From: a virus
Length of the DNA: 37,452 bases
Strand: one strand, 5' to 3'
Virus genome (UHGV): UHGV-1371557
Shown: piece after piece, positions 108-37,405 of the stretch
Layout: each line of letters opens with the position of its first letter
Position numbering within the stretch: position 1 is the first letter of the stretch
Notes under the pieces: model-generated
Told to the model about the DNA's origin: nothing
Seen by the model: only the letters and a program-made list of their open reading frames with translations
Database searches by the model: none
Translations under genes and position numbers: made by a program

Positions 108-1457
108 TTAAAGTTCATTAGATGATACCTCTTTCCGTCCGTTATGCGTCCGTTGTGAGGACAGCAGCGGACGGTTGAACTTTTCCATCTCCTGCGCCTT
201 GAGGGTATCTGCGATTGCGATGTACGGACGCATCGTTGCCTCGGTTTTGTGGCCTGTATATTTGCGGATGACCTCAGAGGGGATGCCAAGGGTGAGAGCC
301 TGCACAACAAAGGTATGGCGCCCTATGTGCGAGGTCACGACCTCATACTTCGGTAGTGACTCCTCGATGCGCTGGCGACCAGAATATCGCAGGCGTGTGA
401 CGGGTGCGTCTATGCCCGCCTGCTTGCACACGCTTTTGATCGCTCGGTTTAGGCGTTGCTCTGCCATTGATGGAAGTGGCTTCTCCTCACCCTTATACTT
501 ATTGAGGATAGTGCGGGCGTGGTCGTTGATGTCCACCTCGATCAGCTGGTCCGTCTTCTGTGCGTAGTATCGTATGCTTCTCTCTGTGATGTTGTCGTGT
601 GTCAGCTTCTTCAAATCCGAGTACCGCAGGCCAGTGAAGCAAAGGAAGCAGAAGAGGTCACGTGCTATCTTCTCTGAATGCAGGCGTAGCTCTACCTCCA
701 TAAGTCGGCTCAGCTCCTCCCACGTGAGATATACCTCGGCTCTGTTGCTATCGATGCCCTTTAGGCGCACCTCGAAGAAACGGCGGTAAGCCTTCTCGTA
801 TAGACCCTGACCTTGTGCCCAATAGAGTGCGCTCTTTAATATGCGGAGTGTCTTGTCTACTGATCCATTGAGAAGCCCACGCTTCGCTGTTAGGTGCGTG
901 ATAAAGTCTGCCACCCACTTCTCGTCAATATCCTCCAGTGTAGCCGCCTGCGAGTAGTCTGCTATGTGCATACGTGCGGTGCGTATGTTCGCCAGGTGTC
1001 GCTCGCTCCAGCTTCGTCTCCCGCTCTCAGCTTCTACGAATAGGTCGATGAGTGCGACTATCTTGCGTTTGTCCTCTGGGCTTGCCTTTGCTGGAGCTTC
1101 TTTGGTCGTTCCCAGCGCTTCTCCGAGGTACTCATTATACTTTGCCTTTAGCTCCTCGGGAGTGGGTAGTCGCTCTTCCCTCTCGAAGTAGTTAAACGCA
1201 CTCTCGACAGCCTCCTCCGTGTACTGCAGCGCGCGGTTTATCATAGCGGCTGGCGTGCGTCTATCTCCGTGCGTCGTGTTCTTCATGCACCGCTCCGACT
1301 CGGCACTCCACTTGTCTGGCTCGACGCGGTAGCCTACATACACACTGGTTATATAGCCACTGCCACCTCCGTAGCGGATGCGGTAGCGGACTTGCAGAGC
1401 CTTCCAGCCTTTCTGCTTATCGAGGAGGAAGTGGCAGGTACGTCGTATAGGTAGCAT
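108..1457 (-). CDS. int: Tyrosine-type site-specific integrase (phage integrase family)
   Basis: ORF of about 450 aa at the left edge of the prophage. The C-terminal region has the R...H-x-x-R...Y catalytic pattern (HIGRHTFVVQALTLG ... GHKTEATMRPY) and the N-terminal region looks like a core-binding domain. The ORF-track start at 1499 is a TTG; the first ATG is at 1455-1457. Confidence 0.85.
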   Translation of the reverse strand: MLPIRRTCHFLLDKQKGWKALQVRYRIRYGGGSGYITSVYVGYRVEPDKWSAESERCMKNTTHGDRRTPAAMINRALQYTEEAVESAFNYFEREERLPTPEELKAKYNEYLGEALGTTKEAPAKASPEDKRKIVALIDLFVEAESGRRSWSERHLANIRTARMHIADYSQAATLEDIDEKWVADFITHLTAKRGLLNGSVDKTLRILKSALYWAQGQGLYEKAYRRFFEVRLKGIDSNRAEVYLTWEELSRLMEVELRLHSEKIARDLFCFLCFTGLRYSDLKKLTHDNITERSIRYYAQKTDQLIEVDINDHARTILNKYKGEEKPLPSMAEQRLNRAIKSVCKQAGIDAPVTRLRYSGRQRIEESLPKYEVVTSHIGRHTFVVQALTLGIPSEVIRKYTGHKTEATMRPYIAIADTLKAQEMEKFNRPLLSSQRTHNGRKEVSSNEL

Positions 1458-1476
1458 GTTGTGTCGTATTTTATTG

Positions 1477-1512
1477 TAAAACCATTTCGTTGAAGCCAAC
1501 GAAATGGTTTTA
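1477..1512. terminator. Perfect 15-bp inverted repeat (AAAACCATTTCGTTG / CAACGAAATGGTTTT) with a 4-nt loop, flanked by A/T runs. Candidate bidirectional terminator or protein-binding palindrome between int and the upstream gene.
   Basis: Read directly from the sequence at 1478-1492 and 1497-1511. The A4 and T4 tracts are part of the stem ends, so it could terminate on either strand. Confidence 0.5.
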
Positions 1513-4630: not shown

Positions 4631-4662
4631 TTTGGTAAGTCAACCAAATTGGTTTACCTTTG
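4631..4662 (+). promoter_or_regulatory. Candidate Bacteroidetes sigma-A promoter (TTTG-N20-TACCTTTG) for the Cro-like/early-right transcript, inside a divergent operator region
   Basis: TTTG at 4631-4634 and TAccTTTG at 4655-4662 with a 20-nt spacer. Inverted repeats read from the sequence: GTTGA...TCAAC (4625-4643), CTTCAA-AG-TTGAAG (about 4696-4709) and CAAAATTTG. Confidence 0.5.
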
Positions 4663-4749
4663 TAGTGTAGTTCAAGAGGAGCTACAACAAACGCTTCAAA
4701 GTTGAAGCAAAATTTGAAACAAAGATAAAGATAATCTACCACCTGCAAT

Positions 4750-4965: not shown

Positions 4966-5169
4966 GCCCTCCAGCGACCGCGATCTTTGACATACTTGAT
5001 ACAAACAATGGCGAAACGAAATAATCTGCGGGTGAAAGGCCCGCGCGTGATTAACCCATTGTAGTTAGTCTGTGGCCTATTGCGCACAGAGCGAAGCCGT
5101 GGAAGGCACGGAACACCCGAGGATCGCAATCCTCCTGACTACACATTAGTAACTACAAATAATACGGCT

Positions 5170-17865: not shown

Positions 17866-18636
17866 ATGTCTACTGATATGGCAATCCAAGAAGAACACCC
17901 AGTTTACCAGCGCATCACAACGTGGATAGGCGCAGATGCAGCGGTAGAGGTGAGACGACTGCGCAAGCACTTCGGCTTCAAGAGCAACCACCAGCTGTTT
18001 AAGGCTTCTGTCTTTATGGCTATCCGCCTGCTCCAATATGCAGAGCAGAGGGAGAAAGACCCTGACGACACAACCATTCAAGACGCATTCAAGGATCTGA
18101 CGGACTGGGAGGTACCAGAGTTCGGGTGCAGACGACGCAGAAAGAAGGACGGCCACAAGGAGACCGCTGTCCTGCTCGCTCTTTTCAATGGCCAAGTATC
18201 AAGTATGTCCAAAATGGAAATAGTTGGCGAGCAGGCCACGCCCTCGCACGCTGATGCTCCGAAGTGGTACGAGCGATTCATCCGTCTGCACTATCAAGCA
18301 CTCTACGATAAGTATGCAGACCGAACCGAGCGCCTCACTGGCGACTCACTCGCTCCTCGTGACCTTCTTCACGAATCGCTCTTGCGCTTGCAGTGCCCTC
18401 CGTCGCAAATCACGAGCTACGAATCATACGAGCGTTGGGCGCTTGACAAGTTCAACGAATCACGAGCCGCTCATCATAAGCGTGCGGACTTGACTCATCA
18501 CGAGCCTCATCACGCGAACCCTCATCACGAGGGCGGTAGCTGTACTCATCATCACGATGATGTCAGCGCCTGCCACCGCTCCGACTTCTCCAGTTTCACC
18601 CGCCACCCCCTCCAGGATGAAGAGGCACAGGACTAA
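17866..18636 (+). CDS. Hypothetical protein with a His/Cys-rich C-terminal tail (HHKRADLTHHEPHHANPHHEGGSCTHHHDD)
   Basis: 256-aa ORF with an ATG start. Its 3' end overlaps the HNH gene. Confidence 0.6.
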   Translation: MSTDMAIQEEHPVYQRITTWIGADAAVEVRRLRKHFGFKSNHQLFKASVFMAIRLLQYAEQREKDPDDTTIQDAFKDLTDWEVPEFGCRRRRKKDGHKETAVLLALFNGQVSSMSKMEIVGEQATPSHADAPKWYERFIRLHYQALYDKYADRTERLTGDSLAPRDLLHESLLRLQCPPSQITSYESYERWALDKFNESRAAHHKRADLTHHEPHHANPHHEGGSCTHHHDDVSACHRSDFSSFTRHPLQDEEAQD

Positions 18637-18961
18637 GGAGTACACCCGCTTGATCAACTCAAGGCGCTGGCGTCGTTTGCGAGCTGCATACCTATCCACG
18701 CACCCCGTTTGCGAGGATTGTGAAAAAAAGGGGCTGACGACCATAGCCACAGACGTACACCATATACTCCCTATTGAGGAGTGTGCAGGTCGTCCGCTTG
18801 ATATGCGGGCGCGGGCTTTTGACCCCTGCAACCTTAGAGCGCTTTGCAGGCCGTGCCACATAGAGGCACATAGGGTACTACACTCTAATAGCTTGGACTC
18901 GTCTAAGGAGCGCGCTCGGGCTGAATTGACCGCCTTTGCGTCTGCCTATCTATCCGAGTGA
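18617..18961 (+). CDS. HNH endonuclease (terminase-associated type)
   Basis: Cys pairs and the HNH signature (CEDCEKKG ... DVHHILP ... NLRALCRPCH). The start was taken at the internal ATG (MKRHRTKEY). Confidence 0.8.
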   Translation: MKRHRTKEYTRLINSRRWRRLRAAYLSTHPVCEDCEKKGLTTIATDVHHILPIEECAGRPLDMRARAFDPCNLRALCRPCHIEAHRVLHSNSLDSSKERARAELTAFASAYLSE

Positions 18962-19400
18962 CCGCCTTTTAGTCGGTGCATAGCCTACCCATTAGGGTGT
19001 ATTATCCCCCTGCTTTTTGGGTCAGTGAGCCAGCGGAGAGGCGGGCATACTCCTCCTATTAGGGGGGCGCCCCTCTCTGTAGCTGGCTCGCTCGCATCTG
19101 GGCATACCTCTCCTGTTAGGGTGTGATAGCCCTTGCGAGCTTGTCCGCTCGTCGCTGTGTGTCAGTATCTCAAGGATCGATCGGAGGGCTGATTGCTCCC
19201 CGTTGTGGCTACCCCCTCCGCTGGGAGGAGATAGCAAACCACGTTGTAGCGTTGAGTGTATCACTCCACAAGGTGCAAAGGTTGCGAGCATGCACAGTTG
19301 TACGCGCTCGCCTTTGTCGTTAGTGCAGGTGACTACCTCACACTACGACAATGCCACCCACCTGCATAGGTAGGTAGCTGCCCGCCCGTATGAGCGAGCA
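18962..19400. repeat. Repeat-rich non-coding region. Candidate cos or packaging-recognition/regulatory region.
   Basis: Three copies of CC-N-TTAGGG(T/G)G (18986, 19053, 19111). Two 25-nt direct repeats, GGGCATAC(T/C)(C/T)C(T/C)CCT(A/G)TTAGGG. An inverted pair GAGCCAGCGGAGAGG / CCTCTCTGTAGCTGGCTC. A GATCGATC palindrome. Confidence 0.5.
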
Positions 19401-19435
19401 ATAAAACGCCCCGACGCCTAATATAGACGGCGGGG
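19398..19435 (-). terminator. Rho-independent terminator for the minus-strand three-gene unit
   Basis: On the minus strand: GCCCCGCCGTC-UAUAUUA-GGCGUCGGGGC followed by GUUUUAUUG. It lies 20 nt after the stop of the 19456-19941 gene. Confidence 0.55.
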
Positions 19436-19455: not shown

Positions 19456-19941
19456 TCATGCCATTTTTGCATGCCTTTTGATAATTTTGCGTCTAAGCTC
19501 CTCCAGCTTGTTTGCCTTTTCCGCCATGTAGTCCGCGGGGGAGTATCCAGCGCTCACAAAGTATCTGAGTATGCTTATCTTGTAATTTAGGTAGGCAACG
19601 CTTGATAGGTGTAACTCTTTGCGGAGCTGCAGATACTCTTTATAGGTGATCTCTTTGCACTTTTTTATACACACTTCGTCGTCGCCACCTATACCAGCAA
19701 TAACGCCCTTATAGTATTTCCGCTTTAGGTGGCTGACGTCTGAGATTGCAAAAGACCATATTTCTGGGAGTAGCCCCCATTGTGCCAGGGATACCCCCGG
19801 CTCAAGCGATCTATCTCTATAGTTGTAGGAGTGCCCACCATCTGGAGCGTCGCCAAATCTGTAGCCAACGATTGGCAGGCCTACTATGTCGTTAATTTCT
19901 GTGTATGGGACTTCTGCCCTTGCTATCTCATTTGTTTTCAT
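19456..19941 (-). CDS. Hypothetical protein (161 aa), third gene of the moron unit
   Basis: ATG start (MKTNEIARAE...). Gaps of 12-19 nt to its neighbours suggest an operon. Confidence 0.7.
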   Translation of the reverse strand: MKTNEIARAEVPYTEINDIVGLPIVGYRFGDAPDGGHSYNYRDRSLEPGVSLAQWGLLPEIWSFAISDVSHLKRKYYKGVIAGIGGDDEVCIKKCKEITYKEYLQLRKELHLSSVAYLNYKISILRYFVSAGYSPADYMAEKANKLEELRRKIIKRHAKMA

Positions 19942-19953
19942 CGTCTTGTTTTT

Positions 19954-20523
19954 TTAGTCTTCGAACTCCTCAGGGTGCAAGCGCTTGTAATTTTTGCGTG
20001 CCTCTTCCTCCAGGCGCTCAAAGTCTATTAATTCGCGTTCGGACATAGCTCGCCAAAATTCGCAAGATGCCAAGGCTGCCGCAGCTTTGTTGGATGTCAC
20101 ATTTTGGGGGATCTCCTCCCCGTCCTCGCCCTCCTCAGGTAGTCTATCTATATAGGAGCTTATGCCTATTTTGCTGCATTTGTCAAGCTCGCTATACATA
20201 GCGGCTGCCGATATAGAGCCACTGTTTAACAAGCTCTCGCCATCGACGTATATCATCAGGGTGCGATAAGCGTATAACGGATGTCCTTTTTCGGCTCGTG
20301 ATTTGCATTTTCGATACACCTCGTTGTAGGTGTACTCGCTCATTTCTTTGGCGAGCTGCTTCGCGTCCTCTTCGCTTTTGATGAGGCTTGTAAGCTCCTT
20401 TCGGTCTATATCGATAGATTCTACCGTTCCAGGGTATCCGCATACGCGGCTTTTTGTCATTTGGTAGGTATGCGAAATTGTCAGCTCCTTTCCTAATAGC
20501 GTTATGATCTTATTCGTTTCCAT
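19954..20523 (-). CDS. Hypothetical protein (189 aa), second gene of the moron unit
   Basis: ATG start (METNKIITLLG...). Acidic C-terminus. Confidence 0.7.
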   Translation of the reverse strand: METNKIITLLGKELTISHTYQMTKSRVCGYPGTVESIDIDRKELTSLIKSEEDAKQLAKEMSEYTYNEVYRKCKSRAEKGHPLYAYRTLMIYVDGESLLNSGSISAAAMYSELDKCSKIGISSYIDRLPEEGEDGEEIPQNVTSNKAAAALASCEFWRAMSERELIDFERLEEEARKNYKRLHPEEFED

Positions 20524-20542: not shown

Positions 20543-20917
20543 TTAGTCGATTCTTCTCGTTCCGAGTGGTGCGGCTGCCGCTGGTAGGTCTGTATCTACC
20601 TCTACGTAGTCCCATCCTGTGCCGCAATGGTCTACGAGCAGTACCCACAGATCCAGTTTTTCACTGTATGCGAACATGAGGCCAAAGTGCTCATGCAGGA
20701 ACTCGCAAAGGTCTTCGCTGCAGTTGGTTATGTAGTATTGGTAGATTTCTGGGTACTCTTCCGTCTCTTCGTCACACTCGTATCCGATTGTAGTGTACAT
20801 TAGCTCATCGTCGATATAGGCGATGTTGTTGCATAGGATAGTAGTGCATCCTGCCCAGCTGGCAGCGACGGCGTACGTGGTAGCGTAGGTCGTTTGGTTG
20901 GTCTGATTAGTTTCCAT
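20543..20917 (-). CDS. Small strongly acidic protein (124 aa, about 22 Asp/Glu against 3 Lys/Arg), first gene of the moron unit
   Basis: ATG start (METNQTNQ...). The composition was counted from the translation. Confidence 0.7.
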   Translation of the reverse strand: METNQTNQTTYATTYAVAASWAGCTTILCNNIAYIDDELMYTTIGYECDEETEEYPEIYQYYITNCSEDLCEFLHEHFGLMFAYSEKLDLWVLLVDHCGTGWDYVEVDTDLPAAAAPLGTRRID

Positions 20918-20924
20918 ACCTTTG
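20893..20924 (+). promoter_or_regulatory. Consensus Bacteroidetes promoter (TTTG-N20-TACCTTTG) on the plus strand, overlapping the start codon of the minus-strand moron gene
   Basis: TTTG at 20893-20896, TAccTTTG at 20917-20924. Confidence 0.5.
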
Positions 20925-20946
20925 TAATGATTTTAAGAAAAAGTTT

Positions 20947-20984
20947 GCCCCGTTGTTCGTTGTGAAACGCGCGCGGGGCTTTTT
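20947..20984 (+). terminator. Intrinsic terminator: GCCCCG...CGGGGC followed directly by TTTTT. It sits about 25 nt downstream of the plus-strand promoter and inside the 5' leader of the minus-strand moron transcript.
   Basis: Stem 20947-20952 / 20974-20979, T5 at 20980-20984. On the minus strand the stem is followed by AAACUUUUUCUU, a weaker U-tract. Confidence 0.55.
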
Positions 20985-21036
20985 GCGTTCGTTTCCGTTC
21001 CAAAGTCTGAGGGCGTTTCCCCCTTTCTTTGTACTA

Positions 21037-21068
21037 CAAAGGTACAACAAAAAAACGAAACCACCAAA
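21037..21068 (-). promoter_or_regulatory. Consensus Bacteroidetes promoter (TTTG-N20-TACCTTTG) on the minus strand driving the moron unit
   Basis: Minus-strand TAccTTTG is plus 21037-21044 (CAAAGGTA). Minus-strand TTTG is plus 21065-21068 (CAAA). Confidence 0.5.
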
Positions 21069-21334
21069 CGATAACGCTCTATTTCCCAACATTTTAGGCA
21101 CTTTTTCCGCCCCTCCTCCGAAATTTTTCCGACGACCGAAAAATCAACTTTGCGAGACCAGGGGGAGGTGATTTTTATGGAAGGAGAGGCCCCCTGCATA
21201 CCACCCCTCGCTCCCTTTTCTTTGCACGAGTTCTCAAAGTCACGTGGGGGTGCTGGCGTGGGCTGAAAAGTTTTGGGGGTAAAGTGGTGTCAAAAATGCG
21301 CATTTCGCTGGGTTTATGTAGTGCCCTCTGCAAA

Positions 21335-21742
21335 ATGACGCAAGAAGAAACCGCATGCTTCCTAAGAGATGGGCTAAAGGCCCTCGGCGCATACTCCCCA
21401 GCGTTTGAGCCGCTAATATCGGCCACAGCGCAGATGGCTGGCGTATGTCGGGAGTCTTATGCGGTGCTGATGTCTGATGGCATAGTAGTCACAGAGACCA
21501 GTCGTGAGGGTGATTCACGCAAGCGAGCTAATCCTGCATGGTCCATCTTTATTGAAGCATCCAAGGAACTCCGCGCACAGCTTTCCGAGCTTCAGATGAC
21601 CGTACGAACTGCGAAGTTCACAAGCGGTGACGAGGTAGACAAGCTCAACCACATACTCCAGCAGATATATGACGAAACAACTAAGTCAAAGCGAAGCGAC
21701 AGCACTGAAAAGCGGGGTCGTAGAGCGGCTGCGAAGCGCTAA
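21335..21742 (+). CDS. terS: Terminase small subunit, P27 family
   Basis: Pattern AYSPAFEPLI...VCRESYAVLMSDGIVV...RKRANPAWSIFIEASKELRAQLSELQMT fits P27-type TerS. It lies immediately upstream of terL. Start at the ATG at 21335. Confidence 0.7.
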   Translation: MTQEETACFLRDGLKALGAYSPAFEPLISATAQMAGVCRESYAVLMSDGIVVTETSREGDSRKRANPAWSIFIEASKELRAQLSELQMTVRTAKFTSGDEVDKLNHILQQIYDETTKSKRSDSTEKRGRRAAAKR

Positions 21743-23408
21743 GATACCATACCCACGCTTCAACAAGCTCGACAAGCGTCTATCGTCGTATATACGCGAG
21801 TGCATCAAGCATCCAAGCCTGCACAACGTGTATGAGCTTCTGTCTATTGAGCGCTTCCTGCATAAGGTGGACAAGTATGTGCTTCGAGACGAGAAGGTGC
21901 GTCACTTCATCACGTTCTACGAAAATATCCGCCTCCCGTCTGCCGAGGGTATGGTGTTCTTCGCGCTTACCCCCGTGCAGGTCTTCCAGTTCGCCAATAT
22001 CTTTTGGTTCTACCACGAGGACGGAGAAAGGCGACTTGTTCGTGATGTCCTTCTTTTCGTGCCACGTAAGTTCAGCAAGACGACTTCTATTGCTACGCTC
22101 TCGGTGTATGACCTCCTCTATGGTGATGCCAACGCAGAGAGCTACGTGGGTAGTAATAGTTACCAGCAGTCAAGAGTGTGTTTCGATGTAATCTCTAAGA
22201 TACTCCGTGCGCTTGACCCAGCTCTTAGGCGCTTTAAAATCAACAGAGAGCAGGTGTACAATCGCATACCTGGAAAAATGTCTATCGCACGCTGTCTGTC
22301 GTCTGCGGCTGACCGCTTGGATGGTCTGAATGCTTCACTGGTGATCATAGACGAGTATGCGCAGGCGGACAATGATGCGCTAAAGAGTGTTCTCACCTCC
22401 TCGATGGGTGCGAGAAAGAATCCCCTAACGGTGGTAATCACAACCGCCAGCGACAAGCTCGATACGCCTTTTACGGAGATGCTGGATGCCTATAAGTCTA
22501 TCCTCCGCGGAGAGGTGGAGAATGATAGCATCTTTGCCCACATTTTTGAGCCCGATGTAGATGACGAGGAGGGCGACCCTAATACGTGGCACAAGGTACA
22601 GCCTCACTTAGGCGTAACGGTGCGCCCTGAATACTACGAAGCGGAGTACAAGAAAGCCCAGCTCACGGCAGGGGATATGAAGGCATTCCGCAACAAGCTC
22701 CTCAATATCTTCGCTCGAGACGAGCGTGAGATGTGGATACCTCGTGAGACGATTGAAAAGGCGTTCATGCACGTACCTATGGAGTCGCTTCGTGGCTATC
22801 GGGCTATGTGCGCTGTGGACTTGTCCGTCCGTGATGACTTTAGCGCGCTTACGTTCCTTGTCTACACGCCCAGTCGTGTTCCCGAGGGGCGCACCAAAGT
22901 ATGCCCGTTCCACGCTATCACACATTACTTCTTCCCAGAGGGTATGCTCGCCACGCACGTAAACCGAGAGCTTTACAAGCGGTGGGCGGATGACGGATAT
23001 CTGACGCTCTGTAAGGGCGACAGCATCGATTATCCTCTCATCGTGGATACTATTCTCCGACAGCCTCTCTCTACCCTGAAAATAGGATACGACCCATATA
23101 AGGCACTCGAGTTCACGAACCTCTTGCGGTCTACTCCGCAGGTAGGTAAGGGTAATCTTGAGGCTATTCCGCAAACCAATGGCTCGTTCAATACGGCTGT
23201 GATGTCGTTTGAGCTGGCTCTGTCGCAGGATAGCATCACGTTTGACCCTAATCCTATCACGGCATACTGCTTTGGCAATGCTGTGATAGACGAGGACCGC
23301 CTCGAAAACCGCAAGCCCGTCAAGGCTGTGGCTTCGGACAAGATTGACGGAGCTATCACGTGCCTAATGGGCTTTTGGCTGTTTAACCACTTCAAAACTA
23401 TCGTATAA
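21669..23408 (+). CDS. terL: Terminase large subunit
   Basis: 579 aa. Deviant Walker A VPRKFSKTTS and Walker B LVIIDEYAQ. Its start overlaps the 3' end of terS. Confidence 0.9.
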   Translation: MTKQLSQSEATALKSGVVERLRSAKIPYPRFNKLDKRLSSYIRECIKHPSLHNVYELLSIERFLHKVDKYVLRDEKVRHFITFYENIRLPSAEGMVFFALTPVQVFQFANIFWFYHEDGERRLVRDVLLFVPRKFSKTTSIATLSVYDLLYGDANAESYVGSNSYQQSRVCFDVISKILRALDPALRRFKINREQVYNRIPGKMSIARCLSSAADRLDGLNASLVIIDEYAQADNDALKSVLTSSMGARKNPLTVVITTASDKLDTPFTEMLDAYKSILRGEVENDSIFAHIFEPDVDDEEGDPNTWHKVQPHLGVTVRPEYYEAEYKKAQLTAGDMKAFRNKLLNIFARDEREMWIPRETIEKAFMHVPMESLRGYRAMCAVDLSVRDDFSALTFLVYTPSRVPEGRTKVCPFHAITHYFFPEGMLATHVNRELYKRWADDGYLTLCKGDSIDYPLIVDTILRQPLSTLKIGYDPYKALEFTNLLRSTPQVGKGNLEAIPQTNGSFNTAVMSFELALSQDSITFDPNPITAYCFGNAVIDEDRLENRKPVKAVASDKIDGAITCLMGFWLFNHFKTIV

Positions 23409-23409
23409 A

Positions 23410-24672
23410 ATGACCATTTCTCAATTCTTCACTCGCTTCTTCAAGCGGTCGTACTACGCTGGTGGCGATAAGTGCGCATCTGGCGGAAGCGTGCAGGAGT
23501 TCGTAAATCAATTCAACGCCCCGTCGGTGTCTACACCTGATAGCGCCATGGCTATCGCCAGCGTGTATCGATGCGTGGATATTCTCTCTGGGACTATTGC
23601 CTCGCTCGAGCTTCAGCACCTAAAGCGCTCGGGGAGCATCTTCAAATACGCAGGTGATACTCAGCTCAACACGCTCTTTGCAGGGCAGGCGAATAGCAGG
23701 CAGAACTTCTTCGTCCTGCTAAAGAATGTAGTTGCTCGGCTGCTACTCTCTGGGAACGCCTATATATATCCTCGCTTTTCCTCTCGAGGTGAACTGCTGG
23801 ATATTATCCTGCTTGGCGATGGCGCAGTGTCCTACGACAAGCATAGCAATAACTACAGCGTCTCGGACTATGTGTGGAATATCAACGGTGTGTTCTCTGC
23901 TGACGAGATTATCCACCTAAAGAACAACAGCCTCGATGGCGGTTACACTGGAGTGTCAACTATCACGTATGCTTCTCTGTCTCTCTCGCTTAGTGCGAAT
24001 GCAGATAAGCAGACGAATAACGGACTGCTCTCGGGTAACCAAAAGAGCGGTTTCCTCGTGGGCGGCAATGAATTGCAGGGGCTTGGCGCACTCGATGCTG
24101 ATGTGGCAGACCGAGTGGCAGACCGAGTGAACAGCGAGATTGCGCAGGGGCGTAGAATCATCCGCTTGTCGGGATCTATGCAGTTCATAGAGTCCTCGAT
24201 GAGCAACTCCGATGCGGAGCTACTCGAGGTGCGAAAGTACTCCGTTCTGGATATATGTCGCTTCTTCGGTGTGCACCCCTATATGGTGTTCGCTGATCAA
24301 AGCACGAACTACAAGGAAGCGGAGAACTCGCAGATCAACTTCCTCAACCAAACACTCCAGCCGCTTATCCTGCAGATTGAACAAGAGTTCTCTGTGAAGC
24401 TACTGCCAAGATCAAGGCGGGCATCCGAGCGCATCCGTTTTGACCTCTCCCGACTATTCGCTACCGACCTGCGCACACGTGCAGAGTACGTAAAGAGCAG
24501 CGTGGAGGCAGGCGTTATGACTCCAAATGAGGGGCGAATCTTCGAGAACAGAGAGCCTATTGAGGGTGGTGACCAGCTGTTTATCACGTGTAACGTGGCC
24601 CTTGTCTCCTCTCGCCCGAGTATTGAGGAGTTGCACCCAGATGGAGGCCCTTCTAAAAGTGCAGAAGAATAG
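23410..24672 (+). CDS. Portal protein (HK97-like)
   Basis: 420-aa ORF immediately after terL. Its size and position fit a portal. Confidence 0.8.
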   Translation: MTISQFFTRFFKRSYYAGGDKCASGGSVQEFVNQFNAPSVSTPDSAMAIASVYRCVDILSGTIASLELQHLKRSGSIFKYAGDTQLNTLFAGQANSRQNFFVLLKNVVARLLLSGNAYIYPRFSSRGELLDIILLGDGAVSYDKHSNNYSVSDYVWNINGVFSADEIIHLKNNSLDGGYTGVSTITYASLSLSLSANADKQTNNGLLSGNQKSGFLVGGNELQGLGALDADVADRVADRVNSEIAQGRRIIRLSGSMQFIESSMSNSDAELLEVRKYSVLDICRFFGVHPYMVFADQSTNYKEAENSQINFLNQTLQPLILQIEQEFSVKLLPRSRRASERIRFDLSRLFATDLRTRAEYVKSSVEAGVMTPNEGRIFENREPIEGGDQLFITCNVALVSSRPSIEELHPDGGPSKSAEE

Positions 24673-34607: not shown

Positions 34608-34683
34608 CTAACACAGCAGGGCGGGCGGTAATGGGGTGACCGCCTGCGCCTGCAACCAACCACCCCGACCAAAACATAACTAT

Positions 34684-36318
34684 ATGCGACCATTTGGAAG
34701 TAAGAGCGACGGCAAGGCGCTCCAGCTTGTGCAAAGAGGTACGGACAAACGCATACCCGTGGAGCTGGTCAAACAGCCCTCGGGCGAGGTCTTAGACCCT
34801 GCAGAGCTGGAAGGACTGCACGTGATGGTGTCAAGCGAGAGCGGAGGTATGGCCACCATACCCTACTCCGTAGAAGACGGCAAGCTGGTGGTGGAGGTGA
34901 CGGCAGACATCTCCCGACAGCTGGGGCTGGGGGTCTACACGATGACCGCAACGGGGCGCATTCCCGACCCTGCGTATGCTGATGGCTACCACGACTACGA
35001 GATAGTAGTAGACCTCTGTAAGGTCACGAAGTATGGAAGCAACGAGACGCCCGTAAAGGTGCAGGCTAACGTGCTGGAGGGCTTGCGAGGTGAGAAGGGA
35101 GAGAGAGGAGAAAAGGGCGACCCTGGCGAACGTGGAGAGCAAGGCGCCCAGGGCATTCAAGGTGTCCAAGGGGAGCGCGGTCTGCAAGGCACCCAAGGAG
35201 TCCAAGGAGTCCAAGGAGTCCAAGGAGAGCGCGGGGCTGACGGTGCGGTAGGTAAGTCCGCCTATCAGTCCTATCTCGAGACGACCACCGACAACCCCAA
35301 GCTCACAGAGGCGCAGTATGCAGCAATCAACGCCATCACGACCCAATACCTCTATCGAATAAACAAAGGAAAGGATGCACCGATGAACGAACAAACCCTA
35401 TCGGCAGACCAGCTCATGGAGCTTGACAGCCACCGACGCAACATAATCAACGCCCTGCGAGCTAAGGGTGCACAGGTCACCGACGACGACGGTCTGGAGG
35501 TGCTGGAGGCGAAGATCGCGGCGCTATCATACAGCAAGATCACCGTTATCAGGGAGCAGCAGTTCTCGGACTGGCAGGACGATGTTTACCCACCAATGGT
35601 GGTAAGCGATACCTTCCGTCCTGTTAGTCTGAAAAATATGTTCGCACAAAACCCACGCCTCTCGCAACTGCCCGTTGTTGAGGGCGTCGAGAAAGCGCTG
35701 TATATCGACAGATACGCACAGCGTTGCCCGTCGCTTCGCTCGGTTGAACTCCCCGATCTTCTCGAGGTTAAAACGGCGACAACGATGTTTGATGGGTGCA
35801 CCTCGATGACCAAGGCGACAATAGGAGCCCTTCCTGCACTCACAAACGCAACGTGGCTCTTCAGTAACTGCCAGTCGCTCACGTCTGCCACCATTGGCTC
35901 AGCACCAAAGCTGGAGATCGCTCAAGGCCTCTTCAACAACTGTACCTCCCTGCAGAGCGTCACGCTTGATCTTTCGGGTGGGCTAATAACAAATGCATCA
36001 TACCTGTTCAATGGATGCGAAAAGCTGCGCTCAGTGAATGGCGTTATCGACCTGTCAAGGACGACAAATGTAGCCTCGGCGTTTAGTGGCTGTACGTCAC
36101 TCGAGGATGTGCGCATCAAGGGGATTAAGGTGAGCATTGACCTCTCCGCGTGTGCCAACCTCTCGCTGGAGAGCGTGAAGCACATTGTCGAGAATGCCCA
36201 AAGTGCAACGAACAAGACTATCACCCTACACAGCTCGCTCGTAGACAAGTATGACGACGAGCTTGTGACGCTCGGAGAGACAGCCACCTCGAAGGGGTGG
36301 ACAATCAATTATCGCTAA
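34684..36318 (+). CDS. Tail fibre/receptor-binding protein with a collagen-like Gly-X-Y region and C-terminal BspA-type leucine-rich repeats
   Basis: GEKGERGEKGDPGERGEQGAQGIQGVQGERGLQGTQGVQGVQGVQGERGADGA, then repeated units of about 20 aa (CTSLQSVTL, CEKLRSVNG, CTSLEDVRI). The ORF-track start is a GTG; the ATG at 34684 was used. Confidence 0.75.
   Translation: MRPFGSKSDGKALQLVQRGTDKRIPVELVKQPSGEVLDPAELEGLHVMVSSESGGMATIPYSVEDGKLVVEVTADISRQLGLGVYTMTATGRIPDPAYADGYHDYEIVVDLCKVTKYGSNETPVKVQANVLEGLRGEKGERGEKGDPGERGEQGAQGIQGVQGERGLQGTQGVQGVQGVQGERGADGAVGKSAYQSYLETTTDNPKLTEAQYAAINAITTQYLYRINKGKDAPMNEQTLSADQLMELDSHRRNIINALRAKGAQVTDDDGLEVLEAKIAALSYSKITVIREQQFSDWQDDVYPPMVVSDTFRPVSLKNMFAQNPRLSQLPVVEGVEKALYIDRYAQRCPSLRSVELPDLLEVKTATTMFDGCTSMTKATIGALPALTNATWLFSNCQSLTSATIGSAPKLEIAQGLFNNCTSLQSVTLDLSGGLITNASYLFNGCEKLRSVNGVIDLSRTTNVASAFSGCTSLEDVRIKGIKVSIDLSACANLSLESVKHIVENAQSATNKTITLHSSLVDKYDDELVTLGETATSKGWTINYR
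35193..35228 (+). repeat. Tandem 9-bp repeats (CCAAGGAGT, 3 perfect copies plus 1 variant) encoding GVQ triplets of the collagen-like region
   Basis: Read from the sequence. The repeats are in frame. Confidence 0.7.
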
Positions 36319-36338: not shown

Positions 36339-36536
36339 ATGGGAAAGTCAGTAAGAATTAAAGCCCCAAAGGGCAAGATGGTCGTATGCCGTGAGCGCCG
36401 AACGATCGGCAGGCTCGTCCGTACACGTGCGGAGGATGCACACCTCTATGAGCTAATGGACGAAGCGGAAGCTCTCGCTCTCGAGAAGCAGTGGAAGGAG
36501 GAGGACGAGGCTGAGGCTGGCGAGGCTCAGCCCTAA
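36339..36536 (+). CDS. Hypothetical small charged protein (65 aa)
   Basis: ATG start. Basic N-terminal half and acidic C-terminal half. Confidence 0.5.
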   Translation: MGKSVRIKAPKGKMVVCRERRTIGRLVRTRAEDAHLYELMDEAEALALEKQWKEEDEAEAGEAQP

Positions 36537-36541
36537 ATAAG

Positions 36542-36566
36542 TGCGCCCCACCGTCGGCAGGGCGCA
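36542..36566 (-). terminator. Hairpin TGCGCCC / GGGCGCA (7 bp, 11-nt loop). On the minus strand it is followed by CUUAUUUA. Terminator candidate for a short leftward transcript.
   Basis: Read from the sequence. The plus strand has no U-tract after it. Confidence 0.4.
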
Positions 36567-36645
36567 TGAGAGGAAGGGGCTGGATAGGATTTATCATGAG
36601 TACGAAATCTGAAAGCCAATCTCCAGCTCCAGCTCCTCTCTCCTA

Positions 36646-36676
36646 CAAAGGTAGCAAGCTGTGGCTATCTATCAAA
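36646..36676 (-). promoter_or_regulatory. Consensus Bacteroidetes promoter (TTTG-N19-TACCTTTG) on the minus strand, firing leftward into the 36537-36640 intergenic region
   Basis: Plus-strand CAAAGGTA at 36646-36653 and CAAA at 36673-36676. Confidence 0.5.
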
Positions 36677-37179: not shown

Positions 37180-37210
37180 TTTGGTGGTATCAAAAAATTG
37201 CCTACCTTTG
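37180..37210 (+). promoter_or_regulatory. Consensus Bacteroidetes promoter (TTTG-N19-TACCTTTG) on the plus strand near the right edge of the prophage
   Basis: TTTG at 37180-37183 and TAccTTTG at 37203-37210. The spacer contains GGTGGTATCAAAAAA, which resembles the GTGGTGTCAAAA motif found upstream of two late genes. Confidence 0.5.
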
Positions 37211-37216
37211 CTGTGT

Positions 37217-37359
37217 AGATGAGTGCACGCTTCTACATTGTCCACCCTTCTGGGTGCTGAATTTGAACGAGCTTATGCTCACAGATGTACGTGATTATTT
37301 TCGTAATCTCGCAACGTCAAACAAGGGCGGGGAGGTGAAAACCTCCTCGCCCTCTTTTT
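37217..37359 (+). ncRNA. Candidate small RNA of about 140 nt, delimited by the 37180-37210 promoter and the 37325-37359 terminator
   Basis: Promoter and terminator lie 110 nt apart. The only in-frame ATG (37220) gives a 13-aa peptide. The ORF-track ORF 37152-37427 runs through the terminator hairpin. Confidence 0.35.
37325..37359 (+). terminator. Textbook Rho-independent terminator: GGGCGGGGAGG-TGAAAA-CCTCCTCGCCC followed by TCTTTTT
   Basis: 11-bp stem with one G-U pair, a 6-nt loop, and a T-tract at 37353-37359. Confidence 0.7.
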
Positions 37360-37405
37360 GGGAGTTCTGCATAAAAACGTCCGTGAAAGCGTCCGATGTA
37401 AATAG

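Follow-up and report, generated by a model that had tools for sequence, protein, structure and literature searches.

What do two consensus promoters control when they face each other across a single hairpin, one of them lying inside the start of a gene? This question is raised by a junction in an uncultured temperate siphovirus of the Bacteroidales, and almost nothing is known about the control of accessory and late genes in temperate phages of this order. The window (the whole stretch of DNA that was analyzed, 37.4 kb) encodes, in order, an integrase, a CI-like repressor, early genes, an HNH endonuclease (18557-18961), a leftward three-gene accessory ("moron") cassette, a cos-like core, terS, and the late genes. 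terS (21335-21742, plus strand; P27/Terminase_4 family) opens the late operon and is followed by terL (21669-23408) and the portal gene (23410-24672). The closest cultured phages are Bacteroides uniformis F1, F2, and F4 (TerL 49% identical), in which the gap between the HNH gene and terS is a plain 148 nt without the promoter-hairpin module. At the DNA level, the cassette/terS region had no match among GenBank phages. terS and the core motif were not found in GTDB species-representative genomes, and host identification failed; the sole pointer to a host is a MAG named "Porphyromonadaceae bacterium," which carries a TerS 56% identical to that of the window.

Both promoters were compared with the Bacteroidetes primary-sigma (sigma-ABfr) consensus as given in PMC7366714. 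P_plus (20893-20924, plus strand) has TTTG at -33 (20893-20896), a 20-nt spacer, and TACCTTTG at -7 (20917-20924). P_minus (21037-21068, minus strand) points leftward toward it, with its -33 box at 21068->21065, a 20-nt spacer, and its -7 box at 21044->21037. At both sites, the -7 box has the form TAnnTTTG and the -33 box lies within the 19 to 21 nt upstream that the consensus prescribes; this spacing is kept in distant relatives despite different spacer sequences. Full matches (TTTG-N18-22-TAnnTTTG) occur 5 times in the 37.4 kb against 0.21 expected, a number reached by 0 of 100 shuffles. All five carry TACCTTTG, which has 6 copies in the window (0.68 expected), and the TAnnTTTG box alone is not enriched (18 versus 12.9 expected). 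One further match (4631-4662, plus strand) lies where an early promoter would be expected, in the interval that separates the gene for the CI-like repressor from the early genes. Both P_plus and P_minus are predicted to fire.

P_plus is embedded in the beginning of the first cassette gene. The minus-strand open reading frame (20543-20917) opens with an ATG that reads as CAT at 20915-20917, so that the -7 box overlaps this ATG and the last bases of the 5' untranslated region, and the spacer and -33 box fall within codons 1 to 9. A change of TACCTTTG to TACCTCCG is a point change in the -7 box that spares both the ATG and the coding sequence.

Downstream of P_plus, a stem-loop (20947-20979) followed by U5 (20980-20984) makes up an intrinsic terminator (20947-20984, plus strand). 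The 15-bp stem includes two G.U pairs and is interrupted by one bulge and a single 1x1 loop; the tetraloop is GUGA, and together with U5 the stem-loop folds at -19.7 kcal/mol on the plus strand. This energy is modestly unusual (z -1.9; 10 of 200 shuffles folded equally well). Because of its bulge, the hairpin was not listed by a simple terminator scan. Five U residues are a short tract for a terminator. Because A.C takes the place of G.U in the minus-strand version, the stem is weaker there (-15 kcal/mol). The U-run is 4 to 5 nt away from this weaker stem; it directly abuts the stem on the plus strand only. A preliminary description of this DNA had reported both promoters, the overlap with the start codon, and a terminator about 25 nt after P_plus, all of which proved to be present. 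It had also called the terminator shared. The hairpin does lie in both predicted transcripts, but it is strand asymmetric, a proper terminator on the plus strand only and a leader hairpin on the minus strand.

About 80 related contigs yielded 29 distinct versions of the junction, and position-by-position invariance was scored over 27 distinct window-like haplotypes. Across the 29 versions, the promoter boxes and paired hairpin bases are near-invariant, and the spacers, flanks, and 5' tail of the predicted RNA vary. Among the 27 haplotypes, P_plus is invariant at 4/4 positions of the -33 box, 7/8 of the -7 box, and 11/20 of the spacer, against 4/16 in the adjoining coding sequence. The stable, G+C-rich hairpin is invariant at 29 of 33 positions, and all of its variation falls at unpaired or wobble positions. 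Of the four positions that vary, one is the bulge, two make up the 1x1 loop, and the fourth carries a C-to-U change by which a G.U pair is preserved in the plus-strand RNA but not in the minus-strand one. Relatives have either a GUGA or a GAGA loop, both of the GNRA type, and a T4 to T6 tract adjoins the plus-strand stem in most of them. The G.U pairs, the C-to-U variant, and the GNRA loop make sense only on a plus-strand RNA. Both the -7 box (TACCTTTA) and the U-run (TTT) are weakened in the L053/L128 lineage, a joint change that is expected if they belong to one transcription unit.

The RNA predicted from these elements (20930-20985, plus strand) would be ~55 nt long, with an unpaired, A/U-rich 5' tail of ~17 nt followed by the terminator hairpin and no open reading frame. 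Its start is placed near 20930, and that of the P_minus transcript near 21031, from the positions of the promoter boxes. With its own promoter and terminator opposite the 5' region of its target, this RNA has the layout of a cis-antisense RNA. It is fully complementary to the minus-strand leader from about -13 to -68. It ends 12 to 13 nt before the AUG, so that a block of translation is plausible but not obvious. The 5' tail is invariant at just 2 of 22 positions in the 27 haplotypes; such free variation is expected of a cis-antisense RNA, whose target changes along with it.

Among relatives, the unit is linked to the start of a minus-strand gene. The P_plus-hairpin unit was present in 31 of 48 related loci, and in all 31 a minus-strand gene starts inside it; where such a gene is missing (15 loci), so is the unit. 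Likewise, every metagenome contig with the hairpin (33/33) has CATACCTTT[G/A], the minus gene start, ahead of it. P_plus, the hairpin, and the first ~8 codons move as one unit that heads two acidic-protein families, the 124-aa family of the window and one of 122 to 131 aa (L006, L057, L071, and L114), which have only ~12 to 15 N-terminal residues in common; in L053 it heads a chimera. Conservation as a set, tied to the start of the minus gene, favors a cis-antisense role over a late-gene switch of the lambda pR'-tR'/Q type.

The cassette that follows has three genes. The first (20543-20917, minus strand) encodes an acidic protein of 124 aa (pI 4.05) that had no match in Pfam, PHROGs, or PDB sequences and whose AlphaFold2 model had no fold match; a role as an anti-restriction factor or DNA mimic is pure speculation. 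The second and third genes (19456-20523, minus strand) encode proteins of 189 aa (19954-20523) and 161 aa (19456-19941), neither with a family match. They form the hypervariable part of the cassette, where relatives are unalignable or ~73 to 76% identical, versus ~85 to 92% in the flanks. A cassette-closing terminator, read from the sequence, lies at 19405-19435 (minus strand; GCCCCGCCG..CGGCGTCGGGGC then GUUUUAUU on that strand). For one distant homolog (41% identical), located on an AT-rich contig, the opposite strand bears a sigma-70 consensus promoter close to the gene start; this promoter drives a divergent membrane-protein gene and therefore represents a different architecture.

Taken together, these data suggest a model in which a ~55-nt antisense RNA and promoter interference act on the cassette and the terminator shields the late genes, and we place about half of our confidence in it. 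P_plus, which is set in the ATG and first ~8 codons of the 124-aa gene, would fire rightward, and its transcript would end ~55 nt on, at a hairpin that terminates well in that direction only. P_minus would transcribe the cassette leftward, its RNA forming its own 5' hairpin first and then reading through the reverse-oriented hairpin into the 124-aa gene. The plus-strand RNA would pair with the ribosome-loading region of the leader and lower translation or stability, and RNA polymerase at P_plus would block the path of leftward polymerases. The terminator would halt P_plus transcripts, which are probably constitutive in the lysogen, before they reach P_minus, the cos-like core, and the late and lysis genes. 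A ~55-nt cis-antisense RNA on the cassette leader had been one of two readings in the preliminary description; as a prediction from sequence, it is the one that best fits the comparative data, namely, conservation as a set and linkage to the start codon. Such an RNA is the most likely product of the junction, and it would be a well-conserved, though not a radically new, kind of phage regulator.

Features of P_minus and its leader bear on a different reading, in which the main product of P_minus is a ~95-nt RNA, made up of its 5' hairpin, the reverse hairpin, and a distal U-run, and in which this RNA and the ~55-nt P_plus RNA meet via their complementary terminator stem-loops. Read-through into the cassette would then be a regulated minority (attenuation), or the pair would serve the cos/packaging region. 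P_minus was found in 46 of 48 related loci, including the 15 without a minus-strand cassette, and its main job may therefore not be cassette expression. It is kept beside the cos-like core and terS in nearly all relatives; its TA and TTTG are invariant, and the nn (CC, TC, or CA) and the spacer (invariant at 8/20 positions) vary. Its -7 box is the right half of a palindrome, CTTTGTAcTACAAAG, the left half of which yields T(C/T)nnTTTG only. In cassette-less relatives, the P_minus transcript would reach, after ~100 nt, a bidirectional terminator facing another plus promoter. Class D relatives have the gene ~430 nt away from P_minus, with a bidirectional terminator in this interval.

The 5' end of the P_minus transcript is itself structured, and this structure too is kept in nearly all relatives. 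A two-tier hairpin (21001-21031, minus strand; CAAAG..GGGGG..CCCUC..CUUUG) was retained in 14 of 14 window-like (short) versions folded, with compensatory changes (CAAAAUG/CAUUUUG versus CAAAAGG/CCUUUUG, GGGGC/GCUCC, and AGAGG/CCUCU). L059 and L057 retain the outer stem only, and L054 and L061 fold differently. This hairpin was assessed by per-sequence folds, as RNAalifold on a MAFFT alignment suffered register shifts. Directly 3' of the U-run lies a conserved GCGTTCGTTTC (20985-20995, minus strand), which reads GAAACGAACGC in the minus-strand RNA. In prefix folds, it could pair with GCGCGCGUUUC, forming an alternative hairpin ahead of the terminator-like stem; CGTTCGTT is invariant in the 27 haplotypes and kept in classes A and D. 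This alternative hairpin is a possible anti-terminator for leftward transcripts that could switch the reverse stem on or off. It is kinetically possible, and the terminator-like fold is favored thermodynamically.

The architecture is that of par of pAD1, an Fst type I toxin-antitoxin locus with convergent promoters, a shared factor-independent terminator, and complementary terminator stem-loops at whose loops the interaction begins (PMC7472228). Here, too, convergent promoters flank a terminator, though an asymmetric one. In contrast with par, the minus leader contains no small hydrophobic open reading frame, and indeed P_minus is followed by no start codon ahead of that of the 124-aa gene; the first product is this 124-aa acidic protein, and two more genes follow. 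The distance of the minus-strand U-run from the stem should also make termination poor in the second direction, and no consensus promoter other than P_minus was found for the cassette. We regard a pair of interacting RNAs of this kind as unlikely.

Another possibility is that there is no antisense regulation at all. The hairpin would be a stability or translation element of the minus leader, or a DNA site; the match to P_plus would be kept by start context, by the N-terminal peptide, or by a recombination joint, and plus-strand transcription would be noise. The hairpin stem is indeed almost frozen, even across lineages with TerS 56% identical, and it is intact in L053 and L128 despite their weakened promoter and U-run. 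This exceeds what an ordinary terminator needs, and the primary role of the stem may be a different one, within the leader of the minus-strand RNA. Both acidic-protein families also have their first ~12 residues, METxxTxQxxY, in common. However, residues 1 to 8 are disordered in the predicted model, and a shared N-terminus on two different families makes it more likely that these codons are constrained as DNA than as protein. Next to the invariant -33 and -7 boxes, codons undergo amino-acid replacement, and a 12-base consensus at the exact 20-nt spacing is very unlikely to arise by chance. The G.U pairs, the GNRA loop, and the adjacent U-run, moreover, are plus-strand features. An explanation without antisense regulation is thus quite improbable in our judgment.

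An arrangement like that at lambda pR'-tR' had been the second reading in the preliminary description. In lambda, pR', the 6S RNA, and tR' lie upstream of cos and the late genes, and the Q antiterminator acts there. P_plus would correspondingly be a constitutive late promoter, and a protein or RNA antiterminator would let polymerase pass the hairpin and continue, across P_minus and the cos-like core, into terS. The anatomy fits: a consensus promoter is followed ~25 nt on by a terminator, with a candidate cos and the late genes downstream. The core (21160-21290; GGGGGAGGTG-T5 .. CCCCCTGCATACCACCCCTCGCTCCC .. GTGGGGGT .. GTTTTGGGGGTAAAG) lies between P_minus and terS, is near-invariant in relatives with TerS just 53 to 67% identical, and has its motif in 45 IMG/VR contigs; it is a candidate cos/terminase site or an unrecognized late promoter. 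Contig ends at about 21175, 21192, and 21270 are inconsistent for locating cos, and one chimeric joint, to Streptococcus-like ecf genes, falls at 21012. P_plus is also the only canonical plus-strand promoter upstream of the late operon. No plus-strand TAnnTTTG box occurs between 20925 and 30095, and the late operon therefore has no canonical promoter of its own; between P_minus and terS, not even a near-canonical one was found. Finally, in every class of relatives, P_minus and terS are preceded by some promoter-like element on the plus strand, with a terminator after it.

Several observations nevertheless argue against the lambda-like scheme. The unit follows the start codon of the minus gene and not terS, and the 15 cassette-less relatives that lack it have the same core and late operon. 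Nor is the unit fixed in the late operon: class D adds promoters and terminators before terS, the unit of L057, L071, and L114 is separated from terS by a second promoter, an ncRNA, and a bidirectional terminator, and the unit is weakened in L053 and L128. Unlike in lambda, a strong opposing consensus promoter stands head-on only ~100 bp away. Instead of a same-strand regulator gene directly upstream of the promoter, there are minus-strand cassette genes. Among the main early-region open reading frames, the cassette, and terS/terL/portal, no protein matched an antiterminator-annotated family in Pfam or PHROGs. A His/Cys-rich 256-aa protein (17866-18636), put forward earlier as a Q-like candidate, does not bear out that role: its His-rich tail (residues 200 to 256) is missing from the L057 and L059 homologs, and it had no PDB match. 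The unit does not travel with the late operon, and we consider late antitermination here as improbable as the absence of antisense regulation.

Least likely of all is that the facing promoters by the cos-like core form a family-wide gate of Bacteroidales HK97-like temperate phages, in which either the plus promoter (P_plus here; in relatives, the second promoter, which precedes a structured RNA of ~170 nt) would be the true late promoter, read through by non-Q, possibly RNA-based antitermination, or P_minus, at the genome end that enters first, would give immediate expression of a hypervariable acidic-protein (anti-defense-like) cassette, with the antisense RNA as a shut-off timer.

The preferred model, antisense RNA with promoter interference, has precedents in several known systems. 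In IS10, pOUT lies within the 5' end of the transposase gene and faces pIN. As in the unit described here, the antisense promoter sits inside the start of the target gene and points outward, and RNA-OUT is a short stem-loop RNA, stable in IS10, complementary to the 5' end of the target mRNA (RNA-IN). RNA-OUT covers the ribosome-binding site and AUG, whereas the RNA predicted here ends ~13 nt before the AUG. IS10 also has no terminator between its promoters to protect a downstream operon, and the promoters here are of the Bacteroidetes -33/-7 type. Among temperate phages, small antisense RNAs include P22 sar and lambda OOP and PaQ (PMC5415839). Like the predicted RNA, sar is a short phage cis-antisense RNA with its own promoter and intrinsic terminator, convergent with the promoter of an accessory or regulatory gene, where it forms a secondary layer of control; this likeness is one of predicted layout, and the two have no sequence similarity. 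The target of sar is an antirepressor; here it would be an orphan acidic protein that heads a hypervariable cassette. Closest in phylum and promoter type are the DonS-like cis-antisense RNAs of Bacteroides, which are 78 to 128 nt long and face susC 5' ends, many with a canonical promoter (PMC7366714). They, too, are encoded opposite the 5' end of a gene, which they repress, but they are chromosomal and belong to polysaccharide-utilization loci, and the unit here is phage-borne, shorter, and equipped with a facing promoter and a one-way terminator.

The module is small and sharply defined, and dozens of contigs from uncultured human-associated phages conserve it. Should the antisense RNA prove real, phages would have their first described cis-antisense regulator with a Bacteroidetes -33/-7 promoter. 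Its promoter would be written into the first codons of the gene that it controls, making a portable regulatory "head" that is reused on different cargo genes. For annotation of gut and oral viromes, the comparison also reveals an undescribed structured RNA locus, a conserved outward promoter beside a probable cos, and a hypervariable cassette. Neither the junction, nor the 18962-19404 spacer, nor the ncRNA of the relatives has a family in Rfam. Two other consensus promoters of the window lead into strongly structured RNAs (z -4.7 and -3.9) that end in hairpins and lack a long open reading frame, one of them with a clear U-run; the phage thus appears to carry several promoter-plus-terminator small-RNA units.

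Both consensus promoters and the terminator hairpin that the preliminary description placed upstream of terS were found at their positions. P_plus (20893-20924, plus strand) and P_minus (21037-21068, minus strand) face each other across a hairpin at 20947-20979. The pattern TTTG-N18-22-TAnnTTTG occurs five times in the window versus 0.21 expected, with TACCTTTG in 5/5; the -7 pattern alone shows no enrichment, so what is enriched is the complete promoter. By folding energy alone, the hairpin (-19.7 kcal/mol, GUGA loop, then U5) stands out only moderately (z -1.9); its bulge kept it off the list of a simple terminator scan. It had been described as a terminator shared by both strands. On the plus RNA, the stem has two G.U pairs and the U-run directly abuts it. 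On the minus RNA, A.C mismatches replace both pairs (-15 kcal/mol), and 4-5 nt separate the U-run from the stem. These strand differences indicate a terminator for rightward transcription and only a leader hairpin for leftward transcription. With conserved CGTTCGTT directly past the U-run, the leftward RNA can fold into a different hairpin while the terminator-like stem is still incomplete. This could aid leftward read-through, a role that we infer only, since the terminator-like fold has the greater stability.

The interval between the HNH endonuclease gene (18557-18961) and terS (P27 family; ATG at 21335), the first gene of the late region, comprises 440 nt of non-coding DNA, a leftward three-gene accessory cassette, and a 418-nt non-coding stretch holding the promoter pair and hairpin. 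The cassette genes, all on the minus strand, encode proteins of 124 aa (20917-20543), 189 aa (20523-19954), and 161 aa (19941-19456) and are closed by a minus-strand terminator (19435-19405). The cassette interior (19456-20523) is hypervariable, with different genes or only ~73-76% identity in relatives that are otherwise 85-92% identical, the usual pattern for a moron or accessory hot spot. The G+C-rich 440 nt (18962-19404) between HNH and the cassette terminator are 72-90% conserved in relatives; no convincing gene was found there, and Rfam gave no match.

The most informative result is the co-occurrence of the unit (P_plus, the hairpin, and the first ~8 codons of the minus-strand cassette gene), the minus gene, and P_minus. 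Relatives were collected with terS and the 124-aa protein (50 IMG/VR loci), with a motif from the core DNA between P_minus and terS (45), and with the hairpin pattern (33 metagenome contigs); protein searches and contig look-ups added relatives with TerS only 53-67% identical. Among the 48 related loci with enough upstream sequence, 31 have the unit, a minus gene starting in it, and P_minus; 15 have P_minus with neither unit nor such a gene; and 2 have none of the three. The hairpin is preceded by CATACCTTT[G/A], the minus-gene start codon fused to the -7 box, in 33/33 metagenome contigs. The unit stands at the head of two distinct acidic protein families, the window's 124-aa family (two alleles) and one of 122-131 aa (L006, L057, L071, L114, and others); one locus, L053, encodes a chimera of the two. 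The families have only their first ~12-15 residues in common, and residues 1-8 of the 124-aa protein are disordered in an AlphaFold2 model. Retention of the -33 box, spacer, and -7 box on different cargo genes argues for selection on DNA rather than on peptide. L053 and L128 show a joint weakening of the -7 box (TACCTTTA) and the U-run (TTT). One contig (L002, IMGVR_UViG_3300008637_000116) carries Streptococcus-like ecfA/ecfT transporter genes (1-1405) joined to the phage at window position ~21012; this joint, between hairpin and P_minus, is almost certainly an assembly chimera.

Among 27 distinct window-like versions, mostly close relatives whose invariant columns partly reflect shared ancestry, the conserved islands coincide with the proposed parts. 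Invariant positions number 4/4 in the P_plus -33 box, 11/20 in its spacer, 7/8 in its -7 box, and 29/33 in the hairpin, against 2/22 in the unpaired 5' tail of the predicted RNA and 4/16 in the adjacent coding sequence. The P_minus -7 box (6/8 invariant) varies only at its two free nn positions (CC, TC, CA), and the P_minus spacer is invariant at 8/20. Variation in the hairpin is confined to four positions: the bulge, the two sides of a 1x1 internal loop, and one site of a C-to-U change that preserves G.U pairing only on the plus RNA. The loop is GAGA for GUGA in a distant lineage, GNRA either way. The argument rests on the contrast of adjacent columns and on modular linkage, not on formal covariation statistics.

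By tying the unit to the first cassette gene, the linkage data favor the proposal that P_plus produces a short cis-antisense RNA against the cassette leader; transcription starts, RNA sizes, and regulatory effect are predictions from sequence. P_plus and its terminator would form a small-RNA gene whose probably constitutive transcript, of a predicted ~55 nt, would be complementary to leader positions from roughly -13 to -68. RNA polymerase on P_plus would obstruct the path of leftward transcription, and the terminator would shield P_minus, the cos-like core, and the lysis genes from the P_plus transcript. There is precedent for antisense RNAs encoded opposite gene starts, both in Bacteroides (PMC7366714) and in temperate phages, e.g., P22 sar and lambda OOP (PMC5415839). 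The par locus of pAD1 (PMC7472228) has the same layout of convergent promoters and a shared terminator, but no toxin ORF is present at this junction. This phage seems to make repeated use of promoter-plus-terminator RNA units, since two further consensus promoters (TTTG..TACCTTTG) precede strongly structured, hairpin-ended RNAs. The minus-strand unit at 36530-36676 (promoter 36676 to 36646) would yield an RNA of ~105 nt (-47.7 kcal/mol, z -3.9) with a weak U-run, and the plus-strand unit at 37180-37365 (promoter 37180-37210) one of ~145 nt (-57.3 kcal/mol, z -4.7) with a clear terminator at its end. Neither contains a long ORF, and both are candidate small RNA genes near the prophage right end.

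No -7 box was found on the plus strand between 20925 and 30095, so the late operon must use P_plus, early-promoter read-through, or a phage-specific promoter of unrecognized type within the conserved core upstream of terS. This observation favors the other reading, a lambda pR'-tR'-like late control in which transcription from P_plus requires antitermination. That reading is less likely: the unit lacks linkage to the late operon, is weakened in one lineage, runs head-on into a consensus promoter, and in some relatives is separated from terS by more promoters and terminators. No scanned protein matches a known antiterminator family. Searches of family databases and the PDB gave no match for the 256-aa protein suggested as Q-like (17866-18636, plus strand). 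In L057 and L059, homologs cover only residues 12-199, a portion conserved in distant relatives and always just upstream of HNH; the His-rich tail of the 256-aa protein is lineage specific and overlaps the HNH ORF. The protein may be a regulator, a speculative role.

The P_minus pattern TTTGG-N20-TAyCTTTG, within the palindrome CTTTTGTAyTACAAAG, is present in almost all relatives and adjoins the core, GGGGGGAGG-T6 .. CCCCCTGCATACCAC .. GTGGGGGT, upstream of terS. The core (21160-21290) is nearly invariant even where TerS is 53-67% identical, and P_minus and the core are also present where non-coding DNA directly follows HNH (L054, L059). The 5' end of the P_minus transcript forms a two-tier hairpin retained, with compensatory changes, in all window-like versions; its outer stem is retained in L059 and L057. 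The HK97-type cos layout has terS after HNH, as here, and a cos is therefore expected in this area. Candidate roles of the core are a cos or terminase site and a late promoter of non-canonical type. Contigs end within it at ~21175 (L073), 21192 (L034), and 21270 (L027).

In cassette-less relatives, P_minus is faced by another consensus plus promoter. Downstream of that promoter come a long inverted repeat, a conserved body of ~130 nt, and, ~100 nt from the P_minus start, a bidirectional terminator. This plus-strand locus (L059 3255-3560; L057 3312-3610; also L071, L114, L121, L127, and L136) is absent from the window and lies between P_minus and either HNH or the cassette. The inverted repeat, in which compensatory changes are numerous, begins within the -7 box, and the body contains CCTAATACTwATGCTCGTTCGCATGrCTTGAAGTATTAGGA. 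The locus looks like a structured RNA; Rfam gave no match. In L057, L071, and L114, the two units are arranged in tandem; the window has the short version.

Gene content shows that the window is a temperate siphovirus. The left arm encodes an integrase (108-1499, minus strand), a CI-like repressor (HTH_3 and S24 domains; 3618 to about 4575, minus strand), and a P63C-domain protein; rightward early genes begin past a consensus promoter at 4631-4662, and the early region also includes the HNH gene. Beyond terS, the late region encodes TerL, portal, tape measure, holin, M15 endolysin, and, after the lysis genes, a 560-aa protein (34636-36318, plus strand) that combines BspA-type leucine-rich repeats with a collagen repeat and may be a surface or adhesion moron. 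The host is placed in the Bacteroidales by the promoter type, the presence of a DUF2693 RNA, and the closest cultured relatives, phages F1/F2/F4 of Bacteroides uniformis (TerL 49% identical). The DUF2693 RNA (4982-5144, plus strand; RF02956, 167.8 bits versus a gathering score of 81.3) lies directly past the first small early-operon ORF, downstream of the 4631-4662 promoter, and could be a leader element affecting early or late read-through. In the immunity region (4631-4727), a -7-only box, TATCTTTG (4727 to 4720, minus strand), lies upstream of the repressor gene and faces the plus-strand early promoter, whose -7 box ends at 4662. Phages 186 and P2 have face-to-face promoters at the immunity switch; with ~46 bp between the elements here, the same arrangement is possible, and by analogy this switch may also be built on face-to-face promoters.
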